Assembly: GCA_963922455.1 (NCBI GenBank) | Contig: CAWUIO010000006.1 | Span: forward strand, 1,255 to 65,254 | From: an uncultured Microscillaceae bacterium | GTDB taxonomy: Bacteria; Bacteroidota; Bacteroidia; Cytophagales; Microscillaceae | Length of the DNA: 64,000 nucleotides | Direction of reading: 5' to 3' | Part shown: one piece after another, positions 9,387 through 63,196 of the stretch | How the letters are laid out: each line of letters opens with the position of its first letter | How positions within the stretch are numbered: position 1 is the first letter of the stretch | Position numbers and translations under genes: made by a program | The notes under the pieces: model-generated | Database searches by the model: none | The model's input: only the letters and a program-made list of their open reading frames with translations | Told to the model about the DNA's origin: nothing

Positions 9387-9517
9387 GGGGCTGCCCCCGG
9401 CGATTTCCGAATCTTTCGGATAGCCAGGCCAGTGCCGCCGGGGTCGGGCTTTCGCTACTCGCTGCCTTTCCCCGCAAGGCCTACACGAGCTCAAACAGGC
9501 CGCTCTATCCCTCAGCC
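9387..9517 (-). repeat. Family-1 dispersed repeat, copy 2 (reverse)
   Basis: Same module as copy 1, but the stem arms are CCCCGGCG/CGCCGGGG instead of CCCGCGC/GCGCGGG. Lies in a divergent intergenic region. Confidence 0.9.
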
Positions 9518-9685
9518 GATGGGGAAGAGAGAGCAGAGAAGCGGGAGGAGAGATTTTGGAGGGAGGAGCCGGAAAGGGATTGCTAAGACCATGTGGGAAA
9601 ATAATACCCCACCGCCGCGAGGCCCTTATCTCGTCAATGCAAAAGATAGCTATATTTGCCTAGATAGTCTAGGATAAACCAAATC

Positions 9686-10322: not shown

Positions 10323-10433
10323 GTTTCAATCCTTGTTTTGGTGGAATAGGCTCGTGAATTTCGGACAAGCAAGCAATACTCGTCATCAGGATGGAGTTTC
10401 AATCCTTGTTTTGGTGGAATAGGCTCGTGAATT
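10323..10433. CRISPR. Orphan CRISPR-like mini-array (2 identical 38-nt repeats, 1 spacer of 35 nt)
   Basis: GTTTCAATCCTTGTTTTGGTGGAATAGGCTCGTGAATT occurs at 10323-10360 and 10396-10433. The 5' GTTTCAATCC is typical of CRISPR repeats. No cas genes are in the window. Confidence 0.4.
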
Positions 10434-10578: not shown

Positions 10579-10716
10579 CTTTAGGGATAGAGCGGCCTGT
10601 TTGAGCTCGTGGGGGCTTGTGCGTCATGGCAGCGAGTAGCGATAGCCCGGCCCGCGCAGGCACATAGGTTCACGGGATACCCCTTGATCTTGCGCGGGCA
10701 AGCCCCTCTTTTTATT
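10579..10716 (+). repeat. Family-1 dispersed repeat, copy 3 (forward)
   Basis: TTAGGGATAGAGCGGCCTGTTTGAGCTCGTGGGGG...GCCCGGCCCGCGC, then a 34-nt unique segment, then GCGCGGGCAAGCCCC. Confidence 0.85.
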
Positions 10717-12299: not shown

Positions 12300-12410
12300 G
12301 GGGCTTCCCCCGCTCCCCCCAAAGCGGGGGAGCGGGGTCGGGCTCTCGCTACTCGCTGCCTTTCCCCCCAGGCCCCTACGAGCTCAAACAGGCCGCTCCA
12401 TCCCTAAGCC
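12300..12410 (-). repeat. Family-1 dispersed repeat, copy 4 (reverse), short-cassette variant
   Basis: The conserved module is intact. The unique segment is replaced by a perfect 12-bp hairpin, CCCCGCTCCCCC-caaagc-GGGGGAGCGGGG. Confidence 0.9.
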
Positions 12411-13349: not shown

Positions 13350-13424
13350 GAATTTCACAGGAAGGTTTTTAGGTCTTTTTTTTCCAAGATGCTTCAAGAT
13401 TTGAAAAAAACCTGCTGAATTCAA

Positions 13425-13555
13425 GGCTTAGGGATGGAACGGCATGTTTGAGCTCGTGTAGGCCCGGCGGGGAAAGGCAGCGAGTAGTGAGAGCCCGACC
13501 CGCGCGGACAGATTTTTTCTATGAAAAACTTTTGGGAATCGCGCGGGGAAGCCCC
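13425..13555 (+). repeat. Family-1 dispersed repeat, copy 5 (forward)
   Basis: GGCTTAGGGATGGAACGGCATGTTTGAGCTCGTG...GCCCGACCCGCGC, then a 35-nt unique segment, then GCGCGGGGAAGCCCC. Confidence 0.9.
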
Positions 13556-15905: not shown

Positions 15906-16036
15906 GGAGCTTGCCCGCGCCAGAAAGTTAAGTTTTCTAACAAACATAGAGCGGCGGGCGCGGGCCGGGCTCTCGCTACTCGCCTGCCCCCCGCTAGGCC
16001 CTTTCGGGCTCAAACAGGCCGCTCCATCCCTAAGCC
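15906..16036 (-). repeat. Family-1 dispersed repeat, copy 6 (reverse)
   Basis: GAGCTTGCCCGCGC, then a 37-nt unique segment, then GCGCGGGCCGGGCTCTCGCTACTCGCCTGCC...CTCAAACAGGCCGCTCCATCCCTAAGCC. Confidence 0.9.
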
Positions 16037-16181
16037 TAAGAAGAAGAGAGAGCAGTGAACAGAGATTTGGGTTATGGAGCCGGGAACCCCATCAGTACAA
16101 AATTAGCTTCGCTGGGCCCTCCTTGCTCGCTGCTAAACCAAGGGGCACTGAAAGGCTTGCTCGTTCACCCGCTAATTCGCG

Positions 16182-16297
16182 GCAAGCTAGCCTCAGGGCT
16201 GAAAGCGGGGACGCTTTCGGTAAAAGAAAAGGTCCAAGGACCGCGGCGCTTATCCTTGAACCAGATCAATTTTCTACATGCTTGGACTATATGGGGG
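16182..16297 (+). repeat. Family-2 117-bp hairpin-rich repeat, left copy
   Basis: GCAAGCTAGCCTCAGGGCTGAAAGCGGGGACGCTTTCGGTAAAAGAAAAGGTCCAAGGACCGCGGCG...CTTGGACTATATGGGGG. A near-identical direct copy lies at 20948-21064. Confidence 0.9.
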
Positions 16298-16686
16298 CTA
16301 AGGACTTAAAGAAAATCTATCAAGCGGATAGAAAAGAACAAGCAGAGGCAGCTTTACTAGAAGTAGAAGAAACCTGGGGAGCCAAATACCCCCATATCTT
16401 CAAGAGCTGGACGGAAAACTGGGAAACCTTATCTATTTTTTTTGATTTTCCCTCCGAGATCCGAAAAATGATTTATACCACCAATGTGATTGAAAATGTC
16501 AATCGGGTCATTAGAAAGTATACCAAAGGAAAAACTATATTTCCCAGTGATCAGGCGGTCACCAAATCGGTATATCTAGCTTTACAGCGTCTGAGTGAAA
16601 AATGGACGATGCCGCTAAGAAATTGGCAAAAAATTATTGCCCAGTTGGCTATACTCTATCCGGATAAAATTAAACTTGATATTTAA
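16291..16686 (+). mobile_element. IS256-family transposase, C-terminal third only (remnant)
   Basis: WGAKYPHIFKSWTENWETLSIFFDFPSEIRKMIYTTNVIENVNRVIRKYTK...KWTMPLRNWQKIIAQLAILY matches the conserved C-terminus of IS256/mutator-type transposases. The DDE core is absent. Confidence 0.8.
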
Positions 16687-16752
16687 CCATGTTTTTACAG
16701 ACTTTATGAAACATTATCCTGCTCATCGAACTGCTAGCTCTAGATTGAAAAA

Positions 16753-16770
16753 GCCCCGCATTCGCGAGGC
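16753..16770. terminator. Putative bidirectional terminator hairpin
   Basis: AAAAA-GCCCCGC-attc-GCGAGGC-TTTTATTTT, lying between the convergent IS remnant and the last immunity gene. The stem has one mismatch. Confidence 0.4.
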
Positions 16771-16781
16771 TTTTATTTTAA

Positions 16782-17201
16782 TTAATAGGTGTTTTTATCT
16801 AATTCAGAGTCAATTTTTGCTTCTAAAAATTCAACAGTAGCTACTTCCTTCTTATCCGGCTTTGGTCTGATTTTAATATCAAATACTTGTCCCATTGCCA
16901 TATGAATTTCACTTGTATACTTTACTCCTCCCATTTTGTATTTCACGTATGCCAATCGAAACTCTTCTGTTCTACCAAACAATTGCTTCTTTGGAATAAT
17001 CCCATATTGTTCAGGGTACATCTCTGTAACAAGGTCATTTTTATATTCTATCCTCTTTATTAGAGTCAAATACTTTAGCTGCTCCTTTACTAATAAAGAT
17101 TGATGTTCTGGTAGCTGCGAAATCAAATATTCAAAAACAGATTTTTCCAGATAAGTTAATTCACCTTTTTGAGGGTCCTTTATTCTCTTTTTCCAAAACA
17201 T
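16782..17201 (-). CDS. Putative immunity protein I4 (cognate to orphan tip T4)
   Basis: ATG lies 4 nt after the T4 stop. Small, AT-rich, with no signal peptide. The call is positional. Confidence 0.5.
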   Translation of the reverse strand: MFWKKRIKDPQKGELTYLEKSVFEYLISQLPEHQSLLVKEQLKYLTLIKRIEYKNDLVTEMYPEQYGIIPKKQLFGRTEEFRLAYVKYKMGGVKYTSEIHMAMGQVFDIKIRPKPDKKEVATVEFLEAKIDSELDKNTY

Positions 17202-17205
17202 AGGC

Positions 17206-17541
17206 CTACCTTCCAAACATGTTATAATTTAAATCGCCTCCTGGTACAAGTCGAAGCTTAATTTCACAAGGCAAGCGCCTGTATCTAAATGGATCATGAC
17301 CAGCATGTCTCAACGTGTTTGTCTTAATAACATTGAGCCTATTATTAACCATCCAGTTTGGCAAATTGTACTTTCTTTGAGCCGCCTGTGTAATCCATCT
17401 ATGTGAGTATTCTACTCTGACAGGGAATTTGGTTCCGTAAAATTTATGTGGAGTTTTTAGCGTAATGTTTCCAATCAATCCACCACCACCGTTTGCAGCT
17501 TTGAATTGAGAGAATGTCTTACCCCCCCTAGCGGCTACACT
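17206..17541 (-). CDS. Orphan toxin C-terminal module T4 (no own start codon)
   Basis: The frame opens right after the I3 stop and reads SVAARGGKTFSQFKAANGGGGLIGNITLK.... It begins with the shared junction GCCGCTAGGGGGG. Confidence 0.5.
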   Translation of the reverse strand, partial: SVAARGGKTFSQFKAANGGGGLIGNITLKTPHKFYGTKFPVRVEYSHRWITQAAQRKYNLPNWMVNNRLNVIKTNTLRHAGHDPFRYRRLPCEIKLRLVPGGDLNYNMFGR

Positions 17542-17546
17542 CTATT

Positions 17547-17852
17547 CTATTCCATACATTTTTTATACTTCAAAATCTCATCTTTCAAATTACCCTTACA
17601 TATTTCTATTTTGACCCCATTAATTTTATCAAACCCATGAGATTTTGCATCAAAATATAAAGCCACATTTTCAAAGAAGTATTCAAAACTTTCAAAATTT
17701 TTCTGTTCAAAGAGGTCTACTTCTTTGCGTTTGTTTGCATCATCTATGTACCAGTCTGGTCCTGATACACTAAAACCATGATTTACATTATCGTTTAACA
17801 AGGCTTGCTCTAAAGCTGGTATATACTGGTGAAAAAACTCTTTTTCATTCAT
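17547..17852 (-). CDS. Putative immunity protein I3
   Basis: 101 aa. ATG lies 11 nt after the T3 stop. Acidic, cytoplasmic-looking protein. Confidence 0.5.
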   Translation of the reverse strand: MNEKEFFHQYIPALEQALLNDNVNHGFSVSGPDWYIDDANKRKEVDLFEQKNFESFEYFFENVALYFDAKSHGFDKINGVKIEICKGNLKDEILKYKKCME

Positions 17853-17863
17853 AACCGATCAGT

Positions 17864-18145
17864 TTAAAATCTATCCCAAAAACTTTTGTCATTCCATCCT
17901 TTTTCCCACGGTCTGTGTCTATGAAGATTATTTCCTCTACCTCTATGATAGTGAAGGAGTTTTTTGTTTTGTAAAGGCTTAGGAATAGTCATAGAATTAC
18001 TTGCTTTAGAGGCTTGTCCTAATTTATGAAAATCTAACCTTGGTTTTGCTCCATAACCAGAACCTTTAGAAATTGTAAAACCATTTATCTTTCCGCCACT
18101 GGCTCGTAACCATTTGAATTGAGGTACCCACTTAGCGGCGTTATT
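17864..18145 (-). CDS. Orphan toxin C-terminal module T3 (absent from the ORF track because it has no start codon)
   Basis: My own translation is NNAAKWVPQFKWLRASGGKINGF...KKLLHYHRGRGNNLHRHRPWEKGWNDKSFWDRF*. It has a degenerate junction GCCGCTAAGTGGG and shares the HYHxGRG motif with T2. Confidence 0.45.
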   Translation of the reverse strand, partial: NNAAKWVPQFKWLRASGGKINGFTISKGSGYGAKPRLDFHKLGQASKASNSMTIPKPLQNKKLLHYHRGRGNNLHRHRPWEKGWNDKSFWDRF

Positions 18146-18668
18146 TTATCTCCTCTAGCAATAACAAGTTATTTTCATAGTCATCAATAGATAAATTATA
18201 CTTAGGGCTAGTAGATAGCTCTCCGGTTATTAAACATTCAATTTTCTTTGTACTCTGATCGAAATAGAAGAAACCTGAAGACAAAAGCAACTCATCGTTA
18301 CAATAAAACTCGATTTGCACCAAATACTTTGCTGCATTGAATAGATTGATTCCTTTCCTCTTCCAGCCATATATCTTGATTTCCGATATTGCTTTATTCT
18401 CAAATTTTGAAATGGGTTTTTCAGAATATCTGTTCTTTTCAAATTTTAAATCTAAATTTCCTTCACCATAAAAATGAGGAATATCATCTGTGGTAATTTC
18501 TACTGTCTGATCATCCGAGAAATATATCCTTAGCTCTTCCCCAAATAGTGTGCTTTCGTTTTCATCATCTAAAATCTGACCATCCACACTAACAGCTAAT
18601 ATTAATCTTTGAAGTAATGGTTTTAGCTGTTTTGAGATTTTATCTATAATCTTTTCCATAAGCTCCAC
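18141..18668 (-). CDS. Putative immunity protein I2
   Basis: 175 aa. ATG lies 5 nt after the T2 stop. Confidence 0.5.
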   Translation of the reverse strand: MELMEKIIDKISKQLKPLLQRLILAVSVDGQILDDENESTLFGEELRIYFSDDQTVEITTDDIPHFYGEGNLDLKFEKNRYSEKPISKFENKAISEIKIYGWKRKGINLFNAAKYLVQIEFYCNDELLLSSGFFYFDQSTKKIECLITGELSTSPKYNLSIDDYENNLLLLEEIK

Positions 18669-18673
18669 TTAAT

Positions 18674-19000
18674 TTAATAAGGTCCTAACCAACCGTTTCT
18701 TAATTGAGACCCATTAAGAATCTTGTTCCCTGAGCCGAATTGCATATGGTGGGCTCCAGTTTTCCCTCGACCCCAGTGATAATGCCAGAATTTCTGATTG
18801 ATAGGTGTTTGCCCTGGTTTTCTTAATACCCAATTATGTCGATCAATCGCACCTTGGAATTTACCATATTTAAACCCTATTACTCTGTGCCCAGACATGC
18901 CTGGTGCCTGAACTTTCGACATTACTGAAAATTGAAACTTCTTTCCAACATTGAAATTACCGCCCCATTTTGGCAATCTCACCCCCCTAGCGGTTTCTCT
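18674..19000 (-). CDS. Orphan toxin C-terminal module T2
   Basis: The frame opens after an in-frame stop just downstream of the I1 stop and reads RETARGVRLPKWGGNFNVGKK...FWHYHWGRGKTGAHHMQFGSG.... Junction is ACCGCTAGGGGGG. Confidence 0.5.
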   Translation of the reverse strand, partial: RETARGVRLPKWGGNFNVGKKFQFSVMSKVQAPGMSGHRVIGFKYGKFQGAIDRHNWVLRKPGQTPINQKFWHYHWGRGKTGAHHMQFGSGNKILNGSQLRNGWLGPY

Positions 19001-19007
19001 CTACACT

Positions 19008-19394
19008 CTATTCAACTTTATAAATTTTACCCGAAAACTTTAGCTTATTTTCATCAATCATTTTATTTAAGAATTTTTCAACCAAATCTTCATTTGTCCC
19101 AGCAAGTTTATCTTTTAAGAAAAGATAAAAACTCCAAGAAGTAAACCCTATCTCACCATCTTCAAACTCAATGTCTACTTCAAAATTTTTAAATTGGAAA
19201 CCACAACCATTACCATGAAATGCATAACCAGTAACAGACGAACCTTTCAAATCATAATTTCTGGCAGGAATTGTTCCGGAATTTTTCATCTTCAAATAAT
19301 CACCATCTCCAAAATTATTTTTTAGAAAAAGAATTATCTGGTTAATTAAAAAGCAATAATCTTTAAAAAAAACATCTATTCCATTCATAATCAT
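19008..19394 (-). CDS. Putative immunity protein I1
   Basis: 128 aa. Its ATG overlaps the T1 stop (TAATG). Confidence 0.5.
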   Translation of the reverse strand: MIMNGIDVFFKDYCFLINQIILFLKNNFGDGDYLKMKNSGTIPARNYDLKGSSVTGYAFHGNGCGFQFKNFEVDIEFEDGEIGFTSWSFYLFLKDKLAGTNEDLVEKFLNKMIDENKLKFSGKIYKVE

Positions 19395-19732
19395 TATCTT
19401 AAAAGCATTTGAAGCATTCTACCATCAACCTTAAAGGAACTCTGAGCCGCTCTTTGAGCGGCCATCTGTAGTTCAAAAACGTTAGCATAGTTTCCAGGAG
19501 ATGACAAATAATTTACTGGGACTTTTTGACCAAGACGCATCGCTGCATGAGCTCTGTGATGGCCATTAATGATATAATCTTTGCCTCCATGTCTAAAGAC
19601 ATCAATTGGTTTTTGGATACCTGTAGACTTTGCAGATTTCATGATTTCAGCAACACTTCTTGTACTAACTTTCCAAGTCCTACCTACCTCTGTTCTTATC
19701 AATGAACTTGGATTCACCCCCCTAGCGGCAAC
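19394..19732 (-). CDS. Orphan toxin C-terminal module T1, ParB-like nuclease domain
   Basis: Continues in the same frame directly after the I0 stop (TAA-GTT-GCC-GCT-AGG-GGG). PIDVFRHGGKDYIINGHHRAHAAMRLGQKVPV matches the ParB/Srx DGHHR core. Confidence 0.55.
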   Translation of the reverse strand, partial: VAARGVNPSSLIRTEVGRTWKVSTRSVAEIMKSAKSTGIQKPIDVFRHGGKDYIINGHHRAHAAMRLGQKVPVNYLSSPGNYANVFELQMAAQRAAQSSFKVDGRMLQMLLR

Positions 19733-20188
19733 TTACGTCAGCTTACCATAAAAAGATCCATATTCACCATCCTTAAAGTAGAACTCATCTTCGTCAGCTC
19801 CGTCAGGTTGACACGTAATCATATCAAAATGATAGGTCAACCCAAAATCTTTAGCCCAAGCTATTAACATATTCAGAGATTCTTTGTGTGTTTCTAAATG
19901 AACATCTTTTAAATCAAGAAAGAACAATAACTCTATTTTTTCATTGTCTAAAACAAGGTTTACAAAAACATTTGACACTGAATTCAATTTAAAAGAATCA
20001 AAAGCTATGTCAACATATTCACTACTTTTTAAAAGGTTGATAATAAATCCGTATTCATTATTTTCTGCTTCAGGAAAATTAAACCTTACTCGGCCACTCT
20101 TAGAAAGTAAATCCTTCAAAAACTGAAAGTTAACTTTAGAGATAATCCCTGTGAAAATAATTTCCGTCAAAGTCAAAACATTTTTCAT
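19733..20188 (-). CDS. Putative immunity protein I0
   Basis: 151 aa. ATG lies 2 nt after the stop of the T0 tip. Confidence 0.5.
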   Translation of the reverse strand: MKNVLTLTEIIFTGIISKVNFQFLKDLLSKSGRVRFNFPEAENNEYGFIINLLKSSEYVDIAFDSFKLNSVSNVFVNLVLDNEKIELLFFLDLKDVHLETHKESLNMLIAWAKDFGLTYHFDMITCQPDGADEDEFYFKDGEYGSFYGKLT

Positions 20189-20190
20189 AA

Positions 20191-20805
20191 CTAATCTAAA
20201 AAGCCTTTAAACTGCCAGTTTTCTTGAAATCTAATTCCTCTGCCATCAGGTAATCTCTTTTCAATAAACCCACCTACTCGTTTGAATTTTCCTGGTGCTC
20301 GCCAGATTTCTTGAAAAGTTTTATAGCCCGCTTGATTGAATGTTGCAGGATTCAATTTTGCTCCCGCAGGTATGTTACTTCCCCATGCTGGGTTTCCTCT
20401 TCCAAAGTGTTTCTGAAATTAGTAACCGACTTCACTGAACCCTCTTTTGCCAGTTCGGTTTGCTAAGGCTGATCCTACTGCCTTAAATGTATTGGCACTT
20501 GCTCCCCTAGGGCCAAATGGATTGAACCTTCTTTTGATCTTGTTTAGTAAATTTTTACCCTTATTCAAAAATTTACCCCCAGTAGCAAATACTCCTAATA
20601 CGGGCACAGCCGCCAATCCAGAACCAAGCGCTGAACCATAATCCCCTCTGGCTGTATATATAAATGCATTTGTAATATCCGGGATAATTCCAATAGCTGG
20701 TACGAGTCCTGCAAAATCCAAGCTTGATTGAAATGCATCTAGGGCTTTTCGCCAGAAATCTCCCAACTGGCGCAAGCATAAGCATAGCGCTGCTTGTGCC
20801 TGGTC
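20191..20805 (-). pseudogene. Remnant of a polymorphic toxin: pre-toxin TG (PT-TG)-like region plus C-terminal tip T0; 5'-truncated, with an internal in-frame TAA
   Basis: LDFAGLVPAIGIIPDITNAFIYTARGDYGSALGSGLAAVPVLGVFATGGKF is PT-TG-like. TAA at 20419-20421 is followed in frame by FQKHFGRGNPAWG...RFQENWQFKGFLD*. No N-terminal secretion or repeat region is present. Confidence 0.55.
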
Positions 20806-20947
20806 TTAGCGACAGCCTCCCCACTGTCGGCCGAAGGGAAGGGAGCTTGGGGCATATCATCTATCCTTACAATTTTCTCTTTAGGTTTACTTCCTCCATT
20901 CATCCCATTTCCCAAAGACTTTTTGGCTCGGGATGACCTAGGTCGCA

Positions 20948-21064
20948 GCAAGCTAGCCTCAGGGCTGAAAGCGGGGACGCTTTCGGTAAAAGAAAACGTC
21001 CAAGGGCCGCGGCGTTTATCCTGGAACCAGGTCTATTTTTTTACAGGCTTGGACTAGGTGGGGG
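20948..21064 (+). repeat. Family-2 117-bp hairpin-rich repeat, right copy
   Basis: Direct repeat of 16182-16297 with a handful of substitutions. It abuts the truncation point of the toxin remnant. Confidence 0.9.
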
Positions 21065-21093: not shown

Positions 21094-21222
21094 GGCTTAG
21101 GGATAGAGCCTCTGTTTGAGCCCGCCGGGGGCATGCGGGTGAGCCGGCGAGTGGCGAAAGCCCGGCCCGCGCAGGCACTTGTGGACTCCCATTTCGCCTC
21201 TCCCATTGCGCGGGCAAGCCCC
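21094..21222 (+). repeat. Family-1 dispersed repeat, copy 7 (forward), mosaic of subfamilies A and B
   Basis: GGCTTAGGGATAGAGCCTCTGTTTGAGCCCGCCGGGGGCATGCGGGTGAGCCGGCGAGTGGCGAAAGCCCGGCCCGCGC, then a 35-nt unique segment, then GCGCGGGCAAGCCCC. Confidence 0.85.
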
Positions 21223-21454: not shown

Positions 21455-21468
21455 AAAAAATGAACTTG

Positions 21469-21542
21469 TGACCTTGCTAGGATTCAAACCTAGAACCTTC
21501 TGATCCGTAGTCAGATGCTCTATTCAGTTGAGCTACAAGGCC
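21469..21542 (-). tRNA. tRNA-Arg (anticodon ACG)
   Basis: Folded by hand. Acceptor GGCCTTG/CAAGGTC, D arm GCTC...GAGC, anticodon stem TCTGA/TCAGA with loop CTACGGA, T arm CTAGG-TTTGAAT-CCTAG. No encoded CCA. Confidence 0.85.
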
Positions 21543-23795: not shown

Positions 23796-23924
23796 GGGGC
23801 TTCCCCGCGCTATTCCCTAAAGTGCTCATAACAAAAAAACTGCCGGCGCGGGTCGGGCTGTCACTACTCGCTGCCTCTACCCTCTGGCCCTAAGAGCTCA
23901 AACAGGCCGTTCCATCCCTAAGCC
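23796..23924 (-). repeat. Family-1 dispersed repeat, copy 8 (reverse)
   Basis: GGGGCTTCCCCGCGC, then a 35-nt unique segment, then GCGCGGGTCGGGCTGTCACTACTCGCTGCC...CCATCCCTAAGCC. Confidence 0.9.
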
Positions 23925-29730: not shown

Positions 29731-29860
29731 GGGGCTTCCCCGCGCCAAAGGAGGCACTACCCATTTGCCCTTCGGTAGCCGCGCGGGTCGGGCTTTCGCT
29801 ACTCGCTGCCTTTCCCCGCTAGGCCTGCACGAGCTCAAACAGGCCGCTCTATCCCTAAGC
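29731..29860 (-). repeat. Family-1 dispersed repeat, copy 9 (reverse)
   Basis: GGGGCTTCCCCGCGC, then a 35-nt unique segment, then GCGCGGGTCGGGCTTTCGCTACTCGCTGCCTTTCCCC...CTCTATCCCTAAGC. Confidence 0.9.
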
Positions 29861-30081
29861 TGATGAAAAGAGAGCAGAGACTTAAAACCAGGAGGCGATA
29901 AGCGGGAGTTGGGATGCATTGTCATCTCCCAGGGTATTGCTCGTGTTTGTTAGATACTGCTCTTCGGAGACCAATCTACTAGAAAAGACCGTCTGTTAAA
30001 CCAGAGAATAAACCCATTCCATAATTCTTTGGCCATGTCTAAGCGAAGTGCTATTTTGCTAGCCATTAAATTTTACCCGAT

Positions 30082-38779: not shown

Positions 38780-38909
38780 GGGGCTGCCCCCGGCGATGGT
38801 CCTCTACTGCCCAACAAGTTCTCAAGTACCGCCGGGGTCGGGCTTTCGCGACTCGCCGGCCAGCGCACAAACCAGCGGCGGGCTCAAACAAACGCTCTAT
38901 CCCTCAGCC
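38780..38909 (-). repeat. Family-1 dispersed repeat, copy 11 (reverse)
   Basis: GGGGCTGCCCCCGGCG, then a unique segment of about 35 nt, then CGCCGGGGTCGGGCTTTCGCGACTCGCC...CTCTATCCCTCAGCC. Same stem variant as copy 2. Confidence 0.85.
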
Positions 38910-39146
38910 GATTTTGAGAACCGGGAACCGGGACGGGAGTTAAGTGGTGAGAGGGTTTTGTTGCCTGCTTGCTCGCAAATGTTTAGCGCTCACCTCTTTC
39001 GGGCAGTTGTCTTGCCCTTTCGGCCTTTAAATATGGAGAGTAGCATTGAAAATGCCCGAAGAAATACAGGCACTTGGGAAATGCACCCAGCACAAAAAAG
39101 TCCCGCCTCCCGGTTCCCGTCTCCATATCTCTCCTCTCTCTTCTTC

Positions 39147-39277
39147 AGCTTAGGGATAGAGCGGCATGTTTGAGCTCGTGCAGGCCTGGTGGGGAAAGGC
39201 AGCGAGTAGCGAAAGCCCGACCCGCGCGGCAACAGATGGGCCCATGGCTAGTACCTGCCTTAGCGCGGGGAAGCCCC
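39147..39277 (+). repeat. Family-1 dispersed repeat, copy 12 (forward)
   Basis: AGCTTAGGGATAGAGCGGCATGTTTGAGCTCGTGCAGGCC...GCCCGACCCGCGC, then a 35-nt unique segment, then GCGCGGGGAAGCCCC. Faces copy 11. Confidence 0.9.
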
Positions 39278-46722: not shown

Positions 46723-46852
46723 GGGGCTTGCCCGCGCTAGAGGGGCTTGTATCCAAATTATACATACTACCCAGCGCGGGCCGGGCTTTCGCTACTCGCC
46801 TGCCTCCCGCCGGGCCCTCACGGGCTCAAACAGGCCGCTCTATCCCTAAGCC
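46723..46852 (-). repeat. Family-1 dispersed repeat, copy 13 (reverse)
   Basis: GGGGCTTGCCCGCGC, then a 36-nt unique segment (it starts with a duplicate of TAGAGGGGCTTG), then GCGCGGGCCGGGCTTTCGCTACTCGCC...CTCTATCCCTAAGCC. Confidence 0.9.
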
Positions 46853-57061: not shown

Positions 57062-57195
57062 GGGGCTTGCCCGCGCCAGATAAAGTGATTTCCCATAAGT
57101 AAACAGATTGCCTGCGCGGGCCGGGCTAGGCTGCCGAGCCGGCTCACCCGCATCCAGCGGCGGTCTCGGCCCATTCGGGCGCCTATCCCTAAGCC
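57062..57195 (-). repeat. Family-1 dispersed repeat, copy 15 (reverse), subfamily B
   Basis: GGGGCTTGCCCGCGC, then a 37-nt unique segment, then GCGCGGGCCGGGCTAGGCTGCCGAGCCGGCTCACCCGCATCCAGCGGCGGTCTCGG...CCTATCCCTAAGCC. Confidence 0.85.
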
Positions 57196-57426
57196 AAACA
57201 GGAAGAGAGAAGAGAAAGTAGGAACTAGCGACCCATTGCTTGCTTCACCCTCCCTTTCCCCTCTCTCTTCTCTCTTCTCTATTCTCTGCTCTCAAGAGCC
57301 TACCCATGACATTATTTGTAAAACGCTTTATTAGGTATTTCACGGGAAAAACGTGTCTACTCTTAGGTTTTGATCGGCATCCTTAGCATATTTAACCTTT
57401 CTCTTATGTATACAAGCTGCTTAAGG

Positions 57427-62927: not shown

Positions 62928-63064
62928 AATTTTAATTCTTTGCCCCCATATACAGTATAGGTATGGAGAAGAATTGGAAACGATAAAATTAGCCCCCAAG
63001 CCTGTTTAAACAATCGTTTTCAACTCAAAGCCCCGGTCCTTTCTAAACGCGCCCTTCTTTCTTT

Positions 63065-63196
63065 GGCTTAGGGATGGAGCGGCATGTTTGAGCTCGTAGG
63101 GGCCTGTGGGGAAAGGCAGCGAGTAGCGAGAGCCCGGCCCGCGCTGGCACTATTTGTACTAAGCTAATACAAAAGGTACGGGCGCGGGCAAGCCCC
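63065..63196 (+). repeat. Family-1 dispersed repeat, copy 16 (forward)
   Basis: GGCTTAGGGATGGAGCGGCATGTTTGAGCTCGTAGGGGCC...GCCCGGCCCGCGC, then a 37-nt unique segment, then GCGCGGGCAAGCCCC. Confidence 0.9.

Follow-up and report, generated by a model that had tools for sequence, protein, structure and literature searches.

Five orphan Rhs toxin-tip/immunity cassettes in a low-GC island of an uncultured Microscillaceae bacterium

Here, we describe a tandem array of toxin-tip and immunity genes on contig CAWUIO010000006.1 of an uncultured Microscillaceae bacterium (Bacteroidota; GenBank assembly GCA_963922455.1). The contig stems from a metagenome assembly. The whole stretch analyzed, hereafter the window, comprises 64,000 nucleotides (contig positions 1,255 to 65,254), and window coordinates are used throughout. 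Ten consecutive open reading frames (ORFs) on its minus strand, running from 20805 to 16782, alternate between toxin tips (T) and immunity genes (I), from T0-I0 to T4-I4. Their identity as orphan cassettes, each pairing an Rhs C-terminal (CT) toxin tip with an immunity gene, is well supported. We consider it probable that this is an orphan-only Rhs-CT/immunity array, acquired horizontally as a low-GC island beside a tRNA-Arg gene, and that it likely functions as an immunity island and a silent reservoir of toxins. An earlier note, made from the sequence alone, had proposed a decayed polymorphic-toxin locus of orphan toxin-tip/immunity cassettes. This proposal is supported by the RHS-core proteins that carry homologous tips and by the recurrence of the same T-I pairs in other genomes. 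Stop-to-stop translation of positions 21600-16500, together with the ORF list, reproduced all ten ORFs in the strict alternation that the note had claimed:

20805-20191, minus strand: T0, tip ORF without a start codon
20188-19733, minus strand: I0, intact 151-aa immunity gene
19732-19394, minus strand: T1, orphan tip
19394-19008, minus strand: I1, intact 128-aa immunity gene, DUF6896
19000-18674, minus strand: T2, orphan tip
18659-18141, minus strand: I2, intact 172-aa immunity gene, with an alternative GTG start at 18668
18145-17864, minus strand: T3, orphan tip
17852-17547, minus strand: I3, intact 101-aa immunity gene
17541-17206, minus strand: T4, orphan tip
17201-16782, minus strand: I4, intact 139-aa immunity gene

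All five immunity genes have an ATG start, and they follow their tips closely, with T-to-I spacings (pairs 0 to 4) of 2, -1, 5 or 14, 11, and 4 nt. The overlap between T1 and I1 is the TAATG at 19394 that had been pointed out before. The other gaps had been given as 2-11 nt; the spacing is indeed tight, but that between T2 and I2 is 5 or 14 nt, depending on the choice of start. T1 opens right after the stop codon of I0 and in the I0 frame, again as first described. No ATG lies near the opening of any T frame, which bears out that part of the claim for T1-T4; possible starts nevertheless exist, as in-frame GTG or TTG codons occur inside T0, T1, T2, and T4 (ORF list). In T3, the first in-frame start codon would leave just 42 aa. 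The number of orphan cassettes must be raised from four to five, since T0 also lacks a start codon, an Rhs core, and an N-terminus.

Homologues of all 10 T and I modules occur elsewhere (BLAST/HMMER E ~1e-7 to 1e-100). The alternating array is not a chance pattern, because every T and I has homologues, because a 12-mer (below) is confined to the I-to-T junctions, and because the GC content differs from that of the flanks.

We find that the homologues of all five tips are located at the extreme C-terminus of RHS-core proteins. Carriers were tested with TIGR03696 (RHS-associated core; cut-off, 32.5 bits), which was passed by each of the eight tested (35.6-74.2 bits). Homologues of T1, T3, and T4 (59-89% identity) were found in C-terminal position in RHS-core proteins by a search with concatenated T1-T4, sorted by BLAST. 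Those of T2 were found by an exhaustive HMMER search and a genome scan; they are located after the RHS core both in P0049/P0050 and in two full-length carriers, from Hymenobacter negativus (L010, 2289 aa) and Aquimarina mytili (L011, 1504 aa). T1 shares one 90% cluster with P0045 and is 93% identical to its C-terminus. P0045 comprises 3984 aa with YD repeats, an Rhs core, and the end "...FTARGVNPSSLIRTEVGRTW...", and its N-terminus, read by eye, is signal-peptide-like. T3 has at least 17 homologues that are C-terminal in RHS-core proteins. T4 shares 82% identity with the C-terminal end of P0010, an RHS-core protein, and 45% and 39% with P0033 and an L004 orphan, respectively. Orphan tips of the T0 type are found in L004, where the main gene encodes a 2125-aa SpvB/FG-GAP/RHS protein, and in L012, where it encodes a 1522-aa DUF6443-Rhs protein; they lie behind these genes, and in both cases the orphan has pre-toxin sequence in common with its main gene.

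The tips thus belong to families that terminate giant RHS-core proteins, and profile searches place no array gene in an unrelated housekeeping family; the earlier note had named the opposite outcomes as grounds for abandoning its proposal. It had also invoked the known architecture of CdiA-CT/CdiI, Rhs, and MafB-type modules. The orphan-module architecture holds, and the carrier can be narrowed to Rhs rather than CdiA or MafB. No VENN motif occurs in the T modules in any frame. As a separate observation, P0045 (L005 10001-21955) has several Ycf48/BNR-like propeller regions before its YD repeats, making it an unusually large and elaborate Rhs carrier.

We show that the T-I pairing recurs in other genomes for all five pairs, with the matching I homologue after each T homologue. 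Evidence for the I families was drawn from the genomic contexts of the T homologues. In every pair for which both identities are available, the immunity protein has diverged faster than the toxin. In the genome scan, the best cassette matches came from Echinicola and Cyclobacteriaceae, so that the host is likely a Cytophagia-like member of the Bacteroidota. The recurring pairs, with amino acid identities to the window, are:

T4/I4 in L001: T 82%, I 47% (139-aa gene)
T1/I1 in L002: T 73%, I 40%, DUF6896 at L002 8971-9351
T1/I1 in L005: T 93%, I 84%, DUF6896 at L005 21955-22341
T3/I3 in L003 (Flavobacterium jejuense): T 82%, I 56%
T0/I0 in L004: T 87%, I 79%
T0/I0 in L012: T no value, I 33%
T2/I2 in L008 (Echinicola pacifica DSM 19836): T 93%, I 88%
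T2/I2 in L010: T 60%, I 33%
T2/I2 in L011: T 53%, I 33%
T2/I2 in L007: T 64%, I 32%

The cassettes are bounded by a short recurrent sequence. Exactly three copies of the 12-mer CCGCTAGGGGGG exist in the window, all on the minus strand, at the I0/T1, I1/T2, and I3/T4 junctions, and a copy with two mismatches lies at the I2/T3 junction. The observed number of matches was reached in none of 100 shuffles. At the start of T1, T2, and T4, the 13-nt junction GCCGCTAGGGGGG encodes AARG; it is degenerate at T3 and T0:

19729-19717, minus strand: T1 junction, GCCGCTAGGGGGG
18994-18982, minus strand: T2 junction, ACCGCTAGGGGGG
18139-18127, minus strand: T3 junction, degenerate, GCCGCTAAGTGGG
17535-17523, minus strand: T4 junction, GCCGCTAGGGGGG
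20514-20502, minus strand: T0 junction, degenerate, peptide GPRG, GGCCCTAGGGGAG, dividing the ~100-aa pre-toxin segment from the tip

DNA likeness to other genomes starts exactly at the junction. The similarity to L005 (89.6% identity) corresponds to window positions 19726-19003, from the junction motif to just beyond the I1 stop, and that to L004 (82.7% identity) corresponds to 20509-19718, from the T0 junction via I0 into the next junction motif. In L004, TAAGTTGCCGCTAGGGGGA follows the I0 homologue as it does in the window, and is then followed by a T4-like tip, not by T1. In E. pacifica (L008), GCCGCTAAGGGGA follows the I2 homologue, and a different tip comes next. A Cyclobacteriaceae metagenome-assembled genome (L009) carries an orphan T2 that opens at the exact GCCGCTAGGGGGG. 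The same junction DNA bounds orphans in L004, L008, and L009. This low-GC DNA form of the motif marks a cassette pool that is shuffled between related genomes. T1-T4 are "minimal" orphans, having kept the junction motif alone of the conserved region.

The same junction is also present in full-length proteins, where the earlier note had proposed to look for it. The junction peptide of P0045 is TARG, and in L012 a 65-aa block ending in A[AT]RG is common to the main Rhs protein and two orphans, with other codons used there. Since A[AT]RG ends this shared block, AARG is the point at which a conserved pre-toxin block stops, and functionally it corresponds to the VENN motif of CdiA (PMC3150448). Two further orphan tips, at L005 22343-22670 and L008 967-1280, follow I1 and I2 homologues and open from the degenerate junctions GCCGTTAAGTCG and GCCGCTAAGGGGA, respectively. 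Both carry frameshifts and are decaying minimal orphans.

The first cassette differs from the others in its state of preservation. Inactivating changes are seen in T0 alone, and nine of the ten ORFs are intact. T0 falls into two parts:

20503..20805, minus strand: T0 pre-toxin remnant, opening without ATG, with no Rhs core upstream, and ending in the GPRG junction
20191..20502, minus strand: T0 toxin tip, pseudogene of a CdiA-CT(PABL017)-like BECR tRNase domain

An in-frame TAA at 20421-20419 stands where nine of nine homologues have Gln (motif GYQFQKH), which makes it a CAA-to-TAA nonsense mutation. In addition, a Gly of T0 replaces an Arg found in all nine of the other sequences. I0 is intact although T0 is inactivated. 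Upstream of T0, ~140 bp of unique sequence separates it from repeat elements, beyond which lies the tRNA-Arg gene; nothing Rhs-like is found there. The pre-toxin segment had been described as PT-TG-like. The Pfam PT-TG model (PF14449) was unmatched even at E<=10, which leaves only the resemblance by eye. The analogous pre-toxin block of L012 likewise gave no match to this model (E<=10).

The type of the T0 tip can nevertheless be assigned, and the earlier view that only T1 was assignable holds for T1 but not for T0. A 10-sequence T0 family profile matches PDB chain 6D7Y_A with E=5.8e-14. The AlphaFold model of an 83%-identical T0 homologue (predicted local distance difference test score, pLDDT, 86.5) matches the same chain in Foldseek (E=2.8e-6; template modeling scores, TM, 0.72/0.84; root-mean-square deviation, 1.9 A; 35% identity). 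The toxin in 6D7Y, CdiA-CT PABL017 of P. aeruginosa (Allen et al. 2020), is a BECR toxin that cleaves tRNA-Gln/Pro with a catalytic His (PMC9086364). The single invariant His of the T0 family ("QKH") aligns with the His of "SKH" in 6D7Y and would correspond to its catalytic His3372. Together, profile and model suggest that the T0 tip type is a tRNase with a colicin D-like BECR fold. I0 has no similarity to the CdiI of 6D7Y or to any other PDB chain (I0 at E<=10; 3-member profile at E<=1), and it has no Pfam match.

T1 is likely a divergent member of the ParB/sulfiredoxin (Srx) superfamily that scores under the curated family cut-offs. It matches Pfam ParB_N (PF02195) with E=0.008 and 16.6 bits (gathering cut-off, 26.3) and TIGR00180 with E=4e-7 and 29.9 bits (cut-off, 58.45). 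The T1 family profile matches the sulfiredoxin 6KY4 (E=1.3e-6), and several T1 homologues have precomputed PF02195 matches. T1 is thus likely ParB-like, as had been read by eye, and is probably an enzyme of the ParB/sulfiredoxin fold acting as a nuclease. Its partner I1 matches DUF6896 (PF21837) with 49.2 bits (cut-off, 27; E=7e-13). The earlier statement that all five immunity proteins are unclassified thus applies to I0, I2, I3, and I4, but not to I1. DUF6896 is predicted to be the immunity partner family of ParB/sulfiredoxin-fold Rhs tips, since its genes follow such tips in three independent loci (window 19008-19394, L002 8971-9351, and L005 21955-22341). No mention of DUF6896 was found in the literature searched; its pairing with these tips gives the family a first functional context.

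The remaining tips were called unclassified from the outset, and none of T2, T3, and T4 has a Pfam match. T2 and T3 have a common motif, D-x-H ... HYHxGxG ... H, and comparison of their profiles with hhalign (E=4e-4; probability, 35%) is suggestive of a distant relationship. T2 has no PDB match either. Foldseek found no match for the AF2 (AlphaFold2) model of T3 (pLDDT, 78.7) in either PDB or BFVD (best E, 2.4 and 0.88). T4 and three relatives have no match in Pfam or PDB; their family motif is [SH]H..I.Q ... PNW..NN..N ... NT..H, which, judged by eye, may resemble that of xHH-type HNH toxins. T2/T3 and T4 are rich in His and Arg and are probably nucleases, although this is a guess. I0, I2, I3, and I4 and their homologues are without Pfam matches, and I2 has no PDB match. 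Three tips (T2, T3, and T4, the last unrelated to T2/T3) therefore fall outside any Pfam or NCBIfam family, and I0, I2, I3, and I4 represent four unclassified immunity families.

The array is compositionally distinct from its surroundings. Its GC content is 33-36%, compared with 45-52% in the flanks. Arg is encoded by AGA/AGG in 39 of 48 cases in the array and in ~15% of cases in host genes; for Ala, the array prefers GCT/GCA, and host genes use GCC for 65%. This foreign codon usage indicates that the array was acquired horizontally and recently, from a pool of donors with lower GC. The neighbors of the array are a tRNA-Arg gene, an alpha/beta hydrolase gene, a transposase fragment, and mnmE. 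The features that border the island are:

21468..21542, minus strand: tRNA-Arg (ACG), island border on the T0 side
20943..21064: repeat B, right copy, ~140 bp upstream of the truncated T0 5' end
16744..16774, minus strand: terminator-like hairpin and U-run directly 3' of the I4 stop (minimum free energy, -16.8 kcal/mol; z-score, -3.2)
16297..16686, plus strand: truncated IS256/Mutator-family transposase at the I4 end, PF00872 positions 274-377 of 379 (C-terminal ~104 residues)
16177..16297: repeat B, left copy (~122 bp), direct repeat, 90% identical to the right copy

Repeat B has just two copies in the window, which form direct repeats around the IS256 fragment and the whole array. These could be the footprint of an insertion or deletion through which the main rhs gene was lost. 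The IS256 transposase fragment is itself fused in frame to non-transposase sequence, giving a 272-aa ORF. A metagenome scan with the neighboring hydrolase, aimed at an empty or occupied site at tRNA-Arg, returned only a 37%-identical gene on a 2.3-kb contig. Near the region, Rfam identified only the tRNA; its other hits are the CRISPR repeats described below.

Other repeats occur in the window. Repeat A is a GC-rich, intergenic element of ~80-100 bp that resembles repetitive extragenic palindromic (REP) sequences or miniature inverted-repeat transposable elements (MITEs). It has at least 13 window copies in both orientations, and it flanks the toxin island with one copy on each side, in inverted orientation. 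Two CRISPR-DR7 (RF01320) repeats, 73 bp apart, lie ~6 kb from the array; they are either a mini-array with two repeats or what is left of a larger or similar array. The coordinates of both elements are:

1302-1382, 9441-9540, 10581-10657, 12323-12410, 13424-13505, 15958-16036, 21094-21172: repeat A copies
23796-23924, 29781-29880, 38817-38909, 39128-39231, 46774-46852, 57109-57196, 63054-63144: repeat A copies, continued
10323-10359 and 10396-10432, minus strand: CRISPR-DR7 repeats

How might such an array function? In the reading we favor, each cassette consists of a short junction (AARG), a toxin domain of ~90-110 aa, and, closely linked to it, the cognate immunity gene, which has an ATG of its own. 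The same tips follow the RHS core of giant secreted proteins in full-length relatives, where they would be the delivered toxins. Here, the delivery part is gone: T0 keeps ~100 aa of pre-toxin linker, and T1-T4 keep the junction only. The five intact immunity genes likely protect the cell from five types of toxin fired by neighbors. The start-less, intact T1-T4 would form a silent reservoir, which could be re-armed only via recombination into a full-length rhs gene. Orphan CT/immunity modules are known that have no signals for translation initiation but whose immunity genes are expressed (PMC3150448). The functional reading is the most economical one, and it follows both Poole et al. (PMC3150448) and the concept of acquired interbacterial defense (AID; 10.1101/471110).

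Several points weigh against this interpretation. No RHS protein is encoded in the 64-kb window, and the T0 pre-toxin segment has no relative in genome contigs, metagenome contigs, or protein collections; a partner for tip switching is therefore hypothetical. The ~13 nt of common sequence at T1-T4 is too little for efficient homologous recombination. Selection on immunity alone predicts decay of T1-T4, and none is seen. Finally, neither the array nor any I gene has a conspicuous promoter of sigma-70-like or Bacteroidota type upstream, so that expression of the immunity genes can only be presumed. The 16 sigma-70-like sites detected are about as many as expected by chance (14.4), and the Bacteroidota motif TTTG...TAnnTTTG was not found in the array, where a single lone TAnnTTTG lies inside I1. 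These scans are consistent with the earlier description of the cassettes as promoterless, but they cannot prove absence.

The preservation of the tips raises the possibility, which we regard as a real but minority one, that the array is chiefly a recombination reservoir, from which tips are swapped at the junction into a full-length rhs gene elsewhere, thus changing the weapon. T1-T4 are full-length relative to their homologues, keep all family-invariant residues, and have no stop codons or frameshifts. The junction DNA is conserved across unrelated tips and genomes, and blocks of homology begin right there. Furthermore, the L012 orphans have ~200 nt in common with their main gene, and a reservoir role has been proposed for orphan modules (PMC3150448). 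The same shortage of shared sequence upstream of T1-T4 counts against this view, however, as does the absence of a main rhs gene from the window and of any relative of the T0 pre-toxin from the collections searched.

Somewhat less plausible still is that the array is a functionless fossil, that is, unexpressed and slowly decaying 3' remains of an rhs locus that lost its main gene by rearrangement at an insertion sequence or repeats. T0 looks the part: it is 5'-truncated beside repeats and has both the nonsense codon and the substitution of an invariant Arg. The truncated IS256 transposase, the flanking direct repeats, and a promoter-like signal not above chance are also in keeping with a fossil. 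Against a fossil, nine of ten ORFs are intact and match their homologues over the full length, and a clean terminator follows I4. Pairwise ratios of nonsynonymous to synonymous substitution (dN/dS) relative to the nearest homologue are low where computable, although they mostly record the history before cassette capture: they are 0.05-0.18 for T0-T3 (T4 is not computable because its synonymous sites are saturated) and 0.09-0.44 for I modules with unsaturated synonymous sites.

The recurrence of the junction around different cassettes also bears on how they move. We think it improbable, judged as a joint proposal, that the array samples a mobile pool of minimal cassettes in Cytophagia-like Bacteroidota and in addition holds new toxin and immunity families. 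If so, cassettes would be inserted or exchanged at the motif, in a site-directed manner or by microhomology, without a dedicated neighboring recombinase. T2/T3 (HYHxGxG) would then form a toxin superfamily with a fold absent from the PDB, and T4, I0, I2, I3, and I4 would be new.

A stricter, integron-like version, in which the 13-nt motif is the insertion site (site-specific or by microhomology) for circular or linear [T-I] cassettes, is very unlikely. It does account for the presence of the motif on both sides of cassettes and of TAAGTTGCCGCTAGGGGG after I0 both here and in L004 despite a different next tip. The same holds for the motif after I2, which recurs in Echinicola pacifica before a different tip, for the motif-only "minimal" orphans in L004, L008, and L009, and for the degenerate form after I1 in L005. 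There is also a precedent in recombinase-associated AID (rAID-1) clusters, in which repeated intergenic sequences occur in co-directional arrays of low GC (10.1101/471110). Yet no recombinase lies beside the array, neither a tyrosine recombinase nor an integrase gene adjoins it, and no inverted-repeat or attC-like structure surrounds the motif. Moreover, the motif is coding, and L012 spells AARG with other codons. There, the motif is the end of the conserved pre-toxin block, so that most of the pattern can be put down to ordinary homologous exchange. Type II toxin-antitoxin modules that stand alone, or small toxins made from internal GTG/TTG codons, are scarcely credible: in-frame GTG/TTG codons in T0, T1, T2, and T4 and a 107-aa T1 ORF called by gene callers would allow them, but homologues of five of five tips are C-terminal domains of RHS-core proteins rather than free-standing genes, T3 has no usable start, and no matches to toxin-antitoxin families were found.

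An orphan-only immunity island with a silent toxin reservoir thus remains our preferred reading. The architecture of orphan cassettes has been known since 2009-2012 and will not surprise a specialist. What the array offers is a clean and compact case of orphan cassettes of the Rhs type, from a phylum that has been little studied, with five toxin/immunity pairs open to experiment. New content lies in the unclassified T2, T3, and T4 tips, the four unclassified immunity families, and the link between DUF6896 and ParB/Srx tips. It also lies in a PABL017-type tRNase tip that Rhs proteins carry and that is paired with an unrelated immunity protein, and in a recurrent 13-nt junction that bounds minimal cassettes in several genomes. 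Tip switching with orphan rhs modules has reportedly been studied in Salmonella.

The closest known systems are the orphan rhs-CT/rhsI and cdiA-CT/cdiI modules (Poole et al. 2011, PMC3150448). As in these, tips without starts are arranged in tandem, each followed by an intact immunity gene; the tips open at a short junction motif (AARG here, VENN in CdiA); and the pairs are mosaic between genomes. Unlike in these modules, there is no main rhs gene upstream, and the first cassette is both truncated and nonsense-mutated. In addition, ~13 nt of the conserved region is kept here rather than hundreds, the host is of Bacteroidota type, and the junction comes after a long post-core linker, not at the DPxGL end of the core.

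The AID and rAID-1 clusters of Bacteroidales (Ross et al., 10.1101/471110) are also low-GC, co-directional, and horizontally acquired, and in them too, immunity genes are detached from the weapon and a recurring sequence lies between cassettes. With its GC content of 33-36% and its junction motif, the array shares the rAID-1 traits of low GC (<=41%), co-directionality, and repetitive sequences between genes. It differs from these clusters in having no XerD-like recombinase, in keeping its toxin tips intact, and in that its immunity genes relate to Rhs tips, not to effectors of the Bacteroidales type VI secretion system.

At the level of single families, Zhang et al. are said to have reported ParB/sulfiredoxin-fold toxin domains in polymorphic toxins in 2012. 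T1 resembles these domains in bearing ParB_N/Srx-type signatures; it differs in scoring below the curated cut-offs and in having a partner, DUF6896, without a published role. The T0 tip family, in turn, is homologous to the toxin of the CdiA-CT/CdiI PABL017 pair, by profile, model fold, and aligned His. It differs from that pair in its Rhs carrier and in I0, which is unrelated to CdiI(PABL017), and the T0 copy in the window is a pseudogene. This comparison indicates that a tRNase toxin whose structure is known from a Pseudomonas CdiA is also in circulation on Bacteroidota Rhs carriers, accompanied by an unrelated immunity protein.

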